Source: Escherichia phage 92CQ. From it: DNA of 64,000 nt. Below the pieces are notes generated by a model that saw nothing but the letters and a program-made list of their open reading frames with translations, had not been told where the DNA came from and ran no database searches. Shown here piece by piece: positions 16,100 to 16,693 of this stretch; position 1 is the stretch's first letter; each line of letters opens with the position of its first letter. Position numbers and translations under genes: made by a program. The stretch lies in sequence record PV682554.1; one strand, 5' to 3'.

Positions 16100-16693
16100 T
16101 TAAATTTTAAATTCTTCATTGTTAAATGAATCCAGTGTACGTACTTCTGGTTCTTTGGGAATGAAAACGTCTTTTACAAAACGGAACATAGGGAAACGTT
16201 CTGCCATTTTACGGACGTGTGCTTCTTTACCTGTGTATCGGTGATTAATAGTGCAAATATTAGTCTTCAATGCAAATTCAAAATCTGGATGATATACATA
16301 GTTTTGACCATCCCAGTAACACAGGCAGATAGCTACATCAAAGTTCCATACGATTTCACTGCGTACACCTTCTTCCATGATCATAAAGTTAAACTTAAGA
16401 TCTTTATAGTATGCTTCAAATACCCATTTCAAATGTGGTAGTTCGGCATAAGTGTGTTCTGTTTGCTTAGTAAGTTGTTTCACATTACGTGCACCAACAC
16501 CCAACATCAAAAATTTCTCTACTAATACGAGTGTATTGTGGTTAGGCATACGCAAGTAAATGTCAATATCTTGCGCAGGTTTCTCTAATCGCCAATCACG
16601 TACAGCGCCGCCAGCTACAATTGCAAACGGATCTACCAGTTGGCACATACGTAATACTTCTAAAGCGCGTACTTTTTGATCTTCAATATTCAT
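16100..16693 (-). CDS. minimal Pol-beta-superfamily nucleotidyltransferase (CCA-adding/poly(A)-polymerase head-domain-like)
   Basis: Motif IVAGGAVRDWRLEKPAQDIDIYL matches GGxVRD...DxD head-domain signature; only 197 aa, so no body/tail domains; RBS aggag. Confidence 0.65.
   Translation of the reverse strand: MNIEDQKVRALEVLRMCQLVDPFAIVAGGAVRDWRLEKPAQDIDIYLRMPNHNTLVLVEKFLMLGVGARNVKQLTKQTEHTYAELPHLKWVFEAYYKDLKFNFMIMEEGVRSEIVWNFDVAICLCYWDGQNYVYHPDFEFALKTNICTINHRYTGKEAHVRKMAERFPMFRFVKDVFIPKEPEVRTLDSFNNEEFKI

Follow-up and report, generated by a model that had tools for sequence, protein, structure and literature searches.

What does a nucleotidyltransferase (NTase) of 197 residues do among the replication genes of an Escherichia coli phage? 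The question is raised by a minus-strand open reading frame (ORF) at positions 16100–16693 of a 64,000-nucleotide stretch of DNA from Escherichia phage 92CQ (sequence record PV682554.1), referred to here at its full length as the window. The window derives from a phi92-like myovirus of E. coli that is classified in the genus Justusliebigvirus of the subfamily Stephanstirmvirinae. Its bases 15600–17000 are 97–99.5% identical to 55 phage records, phi92 and AV123 among them, and the NTase protein is 98.5–100% identical across the genus and 100% identical in amino-acid sequence to that of phi92, whose RefSeq label is ‘nucleotidyltransferase’. A preliminary description had placed the gene and its GGAVRD...DID motif exactly (GGAVRD at residues 28–33, with D42 and D44 present) and had read the product as a class II CCA-adding or poly(A) polymerase (PAP) head without the tRNA-binding body, about half as long as a CCA-adding enzyme, in agreement with the 412 residues of E. 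coli Cca. That structural part stands. The three functions it offered, namely acting on RNA 3′ ends with a partner, repairing tRNA ends and synthesising a nucleotide signal, find no direct support in the analysis presented here, and it missed the two most informative facts, homology to the anti-defence protein Gad2 and placement in T7-type replication modules. We tentatively propose, with a probability of roughly 40%, that the ORF encodes a predicted active stand-alone nucleotidyltransferase, expressed with the replication genes, that would serve in Gad2-like counter-defence during replication.

A class II head domain without a body

The model of the protein obtained with AlphaFold2 (AF2) from a 109-sequence alignment has a predicted local distance difference test score (pLDDT) of 91.3 and a predicted TM-score (pTM) of 0.85, and the last 17 residues (181–197) alone are of low confidence (mean pLDDT 54–59). 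The closest solved folds are those of class II CCA-adding, A-adding and poly(A) enzymes (PDB 3aql, 4wby, 3h37, 1miv and 1ou5), with 153–162 residues aligning to the full-length enzymes. The ORF has the class II head-domain fold and the start of the neck, and the structural comparison proposed in the preliminary description thus bears out its view of a head that lacks a tRNA-binding body. Class II enzymes are about twice as large, and their C-terminal body and tail domains, which bind tRNA or RNA, are absent from the ORF.

Class II enzymes are defined by motif A (GGxxRD...DxD) and a third carboxylate, and the ORF likewise has G28-G29-A-V-R32-D33, D42-I-D44 and E93, the last of which is probably equivalent to the third carboxylate, given the succession of secondary-structure elements and what is established about enzymes of this class. 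Motif B, which in class II enzymes reads RRD and recognises the 2′-OH of the NTP ribose, is represented by W-N-F-D119-V-A-I-C, with both arginines gone; this equivalence was drawn by inspection and through the Gad2 alignment. Motif D, the EDxxR template for CTP and ATP, has as its possible counterpart E157-A-H-V-R161, equated by inspection only, and the family consensus at this helix is [DE]x[HY]xxK162...[KR]F, as against EDxxR...RF in class II enzymes.

Searches at the sequence level recover little beyond motif A. The Pfam PolyA_pol model (PF01743) matches residues 26–81 only, at 19.1 bits (E 0.0017), under its gathering score of 23; a profile of the family aligns with E. coli Cca at 4.8% probability over 21 residues, all in motif A; and searches of PDB sequences, whether started from the protein alone or from the profile of its family, returned only marginal motif-A matches to CCA enzymes (E ~0.04). 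A Pfam match to LRR_adjacent was rejected as spurious.

Other stand-alone heads of this kind have been described. Streptococcus pneumoniae NP_344798.1 (PDB 2la3), a 191-residue ‘CCA-adding enzyme head domain’, is bacterial and only 9% identical to the phage protein. The small NTases of Autographiviridae (~170–190 residues; for example, the ‘nucleotidyl transferase’ of Pectobacterium phage PP2) have a class II-like head like that of the ORF, and their matches in BFVD reach TM-scores of 0.55–0.64 with just 16–18% identity in the structural alignments; they are probably a sister family. One of them, Gp22 of Klebsiella phage fHe-Kpn01, is reported to share its likeness to these CCA/PAP structures and to be toxic in E. 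coli (PMC7291057). The database label ‘tRNA nucleotidyltransferase/poly(A) polymerase’ on such genes is probably misleading.

A large family of short proteins

PHROG 1614, ‘nucleotidyltransferase’, matches the ORF with E 2e-34. A word-indexed homologue search gave just two matches, and the family becomes visible only when 1.84 billion cluster representatives (clusters at 50% identity) are searched exhaustively with HMMER: 997 clusters reach E ≤ 1e-3, and 280 of these E ≤ 1e-10. Its members have a median length of 199.5 residues (5th–95th percentiles 176–272) and nearly all stand alone. Since about 1,000 clusters share this compact form, shortness characterises the whole family and does not reflect a truncation, and in these searches the single-domain architecture heavily predominates. 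The N- and C-terminal extensions of ten longer members contain no Pfam domain and hence give no clue to the substrate; no NTase homologue was found in the plasmid collection.

Conservation centres on motif A. G28, G29, W34, D42 and D44 are invariant in 138 of 138 aligned members, and A30, R32 and D33 are kept in at least 90% of them; in the 109-sequence alignment A30, R32, D33 and Y82 are invariant as well, K162 is nearly so, and Q6, A10 and A27 are invariant or nearly so in the family alignments. Position 93, on the strand neighbouring that of DxD, is D or E in 95 of the 138 members (69%), including this protein, and several others carry an acid at i+2 on the same strand. The catalytic carboxylates, which the preliminary description had singled out as the residues to check in an alignment, are thus kept, with two of them invariant and the third position mostly acidic. 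Around motif B, F118 is found in 87%, I122 in 68% and C123 in 75% of members, and the D119 position varies (P in 40, D in 30 and S in 22 of 138). In the neck helix K162 is conserved in 133, F167 in 120 and P168 in 107 of the same 138.

Vibrio phage ICP1 carries a truncated member, ORF223 (BFVD F1D1P7; 137 residues), that matches residues 3–126 only and is annotated in some isolates as two hypothetical proteins. This short copy is either decayed or split, or else a head-only version.

Homology to Gad2

Bacillus phage SPbetaL7 encodes Gad2 (Gabija anti-defence 2), which is 400 residues long and is predicted to contain a nucleotidyltransferase domain; its knockout leaves SPbetaL7 fully sensitive to Gabija, and Gabija defence is abolished by a homologue from Brevibacillus (bioRxiv 10.1101/2023.05.01.538930). 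Gabija is a nuclease–helicase system tied to DNA ends and to RecBCD exclusion (PMC12407980, PMC12904381). Precomputed annotation records the Pfam domain PF26128.2 (‘Gad2’) for most homologues of the ORF, including cluster P0001 with its 99% identity, and equally for 119 of 119 full-length Gad2 relatives among the 120 matches listed, the exception being a 226-residue fragment.

Direct comparison was made with the authentic Gad2 (WIT28108.1; gene OQ921347.1, 109563–110765, annotated ‘Gad2’). BLASTP aligns motif A only, with 12 of 25 residues identical. At the level of profiles, hhalign of the NTase family against Gad2 alone gives 87% probability (E 3.8e-6, 121 columns), and against 38 Gad2 orthologues 95.6% (E 1.1e-8, 122 columns), pairing residues 12–152 of the window protein with Gad2 residues 17–141. 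In the reverse direction, a hidden Markov model (HMM) of Gad2 residues 1–160 has a single match among the window ORFs of at least 50 residues, the NTase ORF (E 2.7e-6). PHROGs 1614 and 4400 are matched by both proteins. Common to Gad2 and the NTase family are G-G, D-x-D-x-Y, Q/N102 after the strand of the third carboxylate and F-D-x-x-[IV]-C; the motif B region of the ORF aligns with the invariant F-D106-F-T-V-C110 of Gad2.

The two proteins also differ in several respects. Gad2 invariants outside the generic nucleotidyltransferase motifs (S36, T74, K76, H130, N131, Q133 and others) are absent from the NTase family, which has Y82 and K162 instead. Gad2 alone has a poorly predicted middle region followed by a confidently predicted, β-rich C-terminal domain. 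Gad2 lies in an anti-Gabija locus of temperate Firmicute phages, whereas the NTase family occupies replication modules of virulent phages, mostly with Gram-negative hosts among the named isolates, and the experimental evidence concerns Gad2 and not the NTase family. Because there is homology between the profiles but the conserved residues differ and the C-terminal part is missing, the ORF is placed in the PF26128 domain family and not among the orthologues of Gad2.

Over-expression of SPbetaL7 Gad2 is toxic (bioRxiv 10.1101/2023.05.01.538930). That Gad2 and Gp22, the latter a relative in structure, are both toxic would fit an active enzyme.

Placement in T7-type replication modules

The minus-strand operon of the window runs in the order primase-helicase, gp160-like ORF, family A DNA polymerase, NTase, gp157-like ORF, gp156-like protein resembling single-stranded DNA-binding protein (SSB), and DNA methyltransferase (Table 1). 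The Phapecoctavirus phAPEC8 has the same gene arrangement.

The association extends beyond these genera. Eighty IMG/VR loci and eight others were reduced to 55 groups (NTases less than 70% identical), and all neighbouring ORFs were clustered. The commonest neighbour families are the Toprim and DnaB primase-helicase, family A DNA polymerase (PolA), HNH homing endonucleases, 5′–3′ exonuclease, ThyX, gp2.5-like SSB, a second polymerase family and dCMP deaminase. At 34 non-redundant loci flanked by 6 kb or more in either direction, a primase-helicase lies within 7 kb of the NTase gene in 25 and PolA in 20, almost always on the same strand and in varying gene order. If genes were placed at random along the contigs, 8.6 of 34 would be expected (Poisson-binomial P ~3e-10); this P value is indicative only, as the test ignores the kinship of the phages. 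Outside Stephanstirmvirinae no conserved adjacent gene was found that might stand in for the C-terminal half of Gad2, and the gene neighbourhoods accordingly lend nothing to the earlier suggestion that the protein acts with a partner.

Table 1. Features of the NTase gene and its neighbourhood in the window (positions in the window; residue numbers refer to the NTase protein unless stated otherwise)
Feature	Position	Strand	Remarks
Nucleotidyltransferase (NTase) ORF	16100..16693	-	ATG start, 197 residues and stop; corresponds to phi92 gp158
Ribosome-binding site AGGAG	16699..16703	-	5 nt before the NTase ATG; same site in the phi92 annotation
Motif A, first half: G28-G29-A30-V31-R32-D33, followed by invariant W34	16595..16612	-	Family conservation
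Motif A, second half: D42-I-D44-I-Y46 (DIDIY, residues 42–46), two metal-binding carboxylates	16556..16570	-	In model strand 43–48
E93, probable third catalytic carboxylate (V-F-E in strand 88–96)	16415..16417	-	Position mostly acidic in the family
F118-D119-V-A-I122-C123, degenerate counterpart of class II motif B (RRDFTxNA), without both arginines	16325..16342	-	Family conservation; Gad2 alignment
Neck helix E157..K162..R166-F167-P168, diverged counterpart of motif D (EDxxR...RF; equivalence by inspection only)	16190..16225	-	Model helix 158–166
C-terminal tail, residues 175–197, probably disordered, acidic tip TLDSFNNEEFKI	16103..16171	-	Low model confidence
Family A DNA polymerase	16831..19410	-	Directly upstream of NTase; PHROG 17 ‘DNA polymerase’, E 3e-111; phi92 gp159
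Toprim and DnaB-like primase-helicase	19906..21678	-	Pfam DnaB_C 1e-15, Toprim_2 1e-10
gp157-like ORF, function unassigned	15658..16056	-	PHROG 16560; own sigma-70-like promoter upstream
gp156-like probable SSB	14709..15641	-	DFDDDIPF at residues 288–295 of this protein; annotated SSB in phages Eryne and JLBYU50

A possible role in counter-defence

Taken together, these features describe a Pol-beta-superfamily nucleotidyltransferase that has, of the class II CCA/PAP architecture, only the head and the beginning of the helical neck, and that is probably transcribed together with T7-type replication genes of the phage. We infer that it is enzymatically active, the most likely mechanism being two-metal nucleotidyl transfer by D42, D44 and E93, with an NTP or dNTP as donor and a hydroxyl group as acceptor. 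That acceptor is probably not a classically held tRNA, since the canonical tRNA-anchoring domains are absent. Like Gad2, the enzyme would shield replicating phage DNA from a host nuclease–helicase defence such as Gabija.

The pace at which the gene changes bears on this proposal. Between Justusliebigvirus and Phapecoctavirus the NTase is 37% identical, as against 79% for the flanking polymerase, 60% for gp156 and 56% for gp157. The faster divergence may reflect either rapid evolution or replacement by another member of the family, and the pattern fits arms-race pressure.

Several points weigh against a counter-defence role. Every one of the 55 Justusliebigvirus records has the NTase, always at the same syntenic place within the replication operon, and such constancy is more reminiscent of a core accessory of replication than of a mobile cassette for anti-defence. 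The homology to Gad2 spans just ~120 residues at ~22% identity, and in motif A itself the family reads G-G-A-P/V-R-D-W where Gad2 has G-G-T-I-T-S-L-F. HMMs of Gad2 residues 150–245 and 240–400, covering the 250-residue middle and C-terminal part, found no match in any window ORF. The PF26128 assignment comes from a precomputed record only. A PADLOC scan was without match, PADLOC models being of defence and not of anti-defence proteins, and no test of phi92-like phages against Gabija was found in the literature searched, which likewise yielded no mechanistic work on Gad2. The mechanism of Gad2 is listed as unknown in a 2026 review (PMC12904381), so nothing mechanistic can be transferred from it. 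Even so, a role in counter-defence or in replication is more likely than tRNA repair.

A more specific version of the counter-defence proposal can be imagined, and we regard it as a long shot. The short Gad2-like enzymes would be terminal transferases tethered to the replisome, where an acidic tail like the SSB tip would hold them on the T7-type polymerase or SSB. By adding untemplated nucleotides to phage DNA 3′ ends or to replication intermediates they would hide such ends from end-sensing, Gabija-like immunity; the same activity would also explain Gad2. If true, this ‘DNA-end disguise’ would be a counter-defence mode previously undescribed.

Alternative roles

The main rival, ahead of tRNA repair, RNA tailing and small-nucleotide synthesis, is an accessory of the replisome with no part in defence: a tail-tethered, template-independent terminal transferase that would extend DNA 3′ ends or primers, perhaps for the formation of concatemers, end processing or primer handling. 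We give it a distinctly smaller, still appreciable chance. The association with the primase-helicase, PolA, FEN, gp2.5-like SSB, ThyX and dCMP deaminase genes, which is strong and independent of gene order, is what such an accessory would predict, as are the place of the window gene between the DNA polymerase and the SSB-like gp156 and its retention there in every Justusliebigvirus and Phapecoctavirus record. Loss of the ribose-sensing arginines of motif B could permit the use of dNTPs. The tail also points this way: in close relatives (at least 45% identical) a Pro-rich linker leads to an acidic tip with an aromatic or hydrophobic end (e.g., LDDAWDDDNF, PWDEEF, DDIPW), reminiscent of SSB and gp2.5, and the tail of the window protein, TLDSFNNEEFKI, is a short version of these tips. 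SSB, T7 gp2.5 and T7 gp4 dock on partner proteins through similar acidic tails. As a feature of the whole family, however, an SSB-like acidic tail was rejected, because it is weakly enriched (11.7% as against 6.9% of neighbouring proteins) and clear only in close relatives. The rapid divergence of the NTase relative to its replication neighbours is likewise not what a replisome component would suggest, and 9 of the 34 full-context loci have no primase-helicase nearby. To our knowledge, T7 and many other phages with a T7-type replisome do without such an enzyme. Genes for host takeover also occupy early and middle regions, so proximity to replication genes does not by itself establish function.

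Repair of tRNA ends, one of the roles offered in the preliminary description, would require a minimal enzyme, perhaps oligomeric or aided by a partner, that restores the CCA 3′ ends of nuclease-damaged phage or host tRNAs. The nearest solved folds speak for it, and full-length phage CCA enzymes are conventionally taken as tRNA-repair enzymes (PMC7824862). The window contains no tRNA gene. The near-identical complete genome MG065639.1, on which we ran the search for phage tRNA genes advised in the preliminary description, has 15, clustered at 33132..36093 of the locus record L013, ~40 kb from the NTase and outside the window. A lineage with 15 tRNA genes might profit from repair, but all 15 encode their 3′ CCA, as do the tRNA genes of E. 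coli, and the host possesses its own Cca. Among 68 related loci of at least 8 kb, any tRNA gene lies within 10 kb of the NTase homologue in just 10, and one homologue lies 2.6 kb from a 17-tRNA cluster; a Vibrio podophage (46.9 kb) carries the NTase beside helicase, polymerase and FEN genes with no tRNA gene in the 40.5 kb scanned. The lack of a conserved partner gene and the sub-threshold PolyA_pol score also count against repair. Classical CCA repair is unlikely in the light of these tRNA data, the absent body and tail domains, the degenerate motif B and an apparently diverged motif D; the proposal that the protein repairs tRNA ends is disfavoured, the RRD of motif B being lost and the match to Cca covering 21 residues only, and we judge even a minimal repair enzyme improbable.

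At one distant homologue, on a large phage contig (locus L002; 199 kb as its copy L003), an IS605 OrfB/TnpB-like gene lies directly upstream of the NTase and an RtcB RNA ligase gene 2.7 kb downstream (the two genes at 6906..8579 and 11339..12565); RtcB, which would suit tRNA repair, is the only RNA-repair neighbour among the contexts inspected by annotation. MG065639.1 itself is one of two ‘Campylobacter phage A150/A145’ records (the other being MG065645.1; both UNVERIFIED, host C. jejuni) that are ~97% identical to E. coli phi92-like phages, and their assignment to C. jejuni looks doubtful.

A PAP-like enzyme that tails RNA, tagging host or phage transcripts for decay and thereby aiding host shut-off or nucleotide recycling, would be compatible with the PAP side of the structural matches, which is no more specific than the likeness to CCA enzymes. 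The C-terminal RNA-binding region of PAP I is absent and nothing in the sequence suggests RNA binding, which leaves this role quite improbable.

The last alternative is that the enzyme makes a small nucleotide, either NpnN or an oligonucleotide of linear or cyclic form, which would act as decoy or inhibitor of a host immune sensor. A nucleotidyltransferase without a recognisable nucleic-acid-binding domain might be such an enzyme, and Cheng et al. are said to have described, in 2021, nucleotide sensing by the GajA nuclease, which would favour it. There is also precedent in the MNT-like phage NTases of Bcp1 and Av05 described by Ho et al., which make cGAMP and c-di-AMP and block TIR-STING (bioRxiv 10.1101/2022.06.09.495361). 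Like the ORF, these are small phage enzymes of the Pol-beta superfamily; the anti-defence role is theirs, and their motif, GS-x-AY[GAN]T-x4-SDxD, marks a family other than that of the ORF. A regular-expression search for this motif over all six-frame ORFs of the window, the NTase ORF included, found none, and identity of the ORF with a phage NTase of Ho et al., an idea suggested by Atd1 in Justusliebigvirus, was rejected on the same ground. As the known cyclic-dinucleotide NTases of phages belong to the MNT-like family, the notion of a nucleotide signal gains no support, and we consider such a synthase very improbable.

Observations on the neighbouring genes

A strong sigma-70-like promoter (TTGACA, an 18-nt spacer and TATTAT, with an upstream TG; 11 of 12 matches) lies at 16067..16096 on the minus strand and starts 4 nt past the NTase stop codon. 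Its position suggests either that the NTase is the last gene of a transcription unit or that the genes further downstream are boosted from a promoter within the operon.

The gp156-like protein (PHROG 4477, ‘unknown function’) has its DFDDDIPF motif, encoded at 14757..14780, 15 residues before the protein end, and the gp156 homologues of loci L018 and L026 terminate exactly at DFDDDVPF and DFDDDIPF, respectively. The motif differs little from the C-terminal tip of E. coli SSB. The gp156-like protein is probably a phage SSB, and it may compete for the proteins that interact with host SSB.

The window polymerase has 859 residues as against 1104 in phi92 gp159 (L001, 9232..12546). The additional 245 residues of the phi92 protein follow ...AKIESHY, start with Cys and end in ...ITITGN|C; in the window phage the sequence is uninterrupted, AKIESHYCWRYEQ. 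From its sequence, the insertion looks like an intein. In some relatives the polymerase is annotated ‘DNA polymerase, part I’.

Directly upstream of the replication genes lie three consecutive glycosyltransferase ORFs (21960..25514, minus strand), the last of which has a weak match to TET-associated glycosyltransferase (TAGT) that is below threshold (E 9.7e-5). The trio may point to glycosylation of DNA or of another phage component.

In one further locus (L015) a gene like T7 gp5.9, the RecBCD inhibitor (Pfam Phage_T7_Gp5_9), is found at 8943..9107, 1.4 kb downstream of the NTase homologue. RecBCD antagonists were proposed in a 2025 preprint to sensitise phages to Gabija (PMC12407980).

Significance

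The basic identification is not new, as the gene was already annotated as a nucleotidyltransferase and Pfam already ties such proteins to Gad2. No earlier description was found, in the literature searched, of the predominance of the short form, its placement in T7-type replication modules or the weakness of the tRNA-repair label. The catalytic domain of Gad2 thus also exists as a compact stand-alone enzyme of ~190 residues, in ~1,000 clusters at 50% identity, and this short form is found preferentially in T7-type replication modules, including those of the tractable E. coli phages phi92 and BASEL Bas60–62. Should the short form block Gabija or a related system, it would provide a minimal, soluble, single-domain model for the chemistry, and ‘nucleotidyltransferase next to polymerase’ would become a marker of phage counter-defence, with relevance to the choice of therapeutic phages. 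Should it instead prove to serve replication, a type of replisome thought to be fully described would gain a new enzymatic activity.

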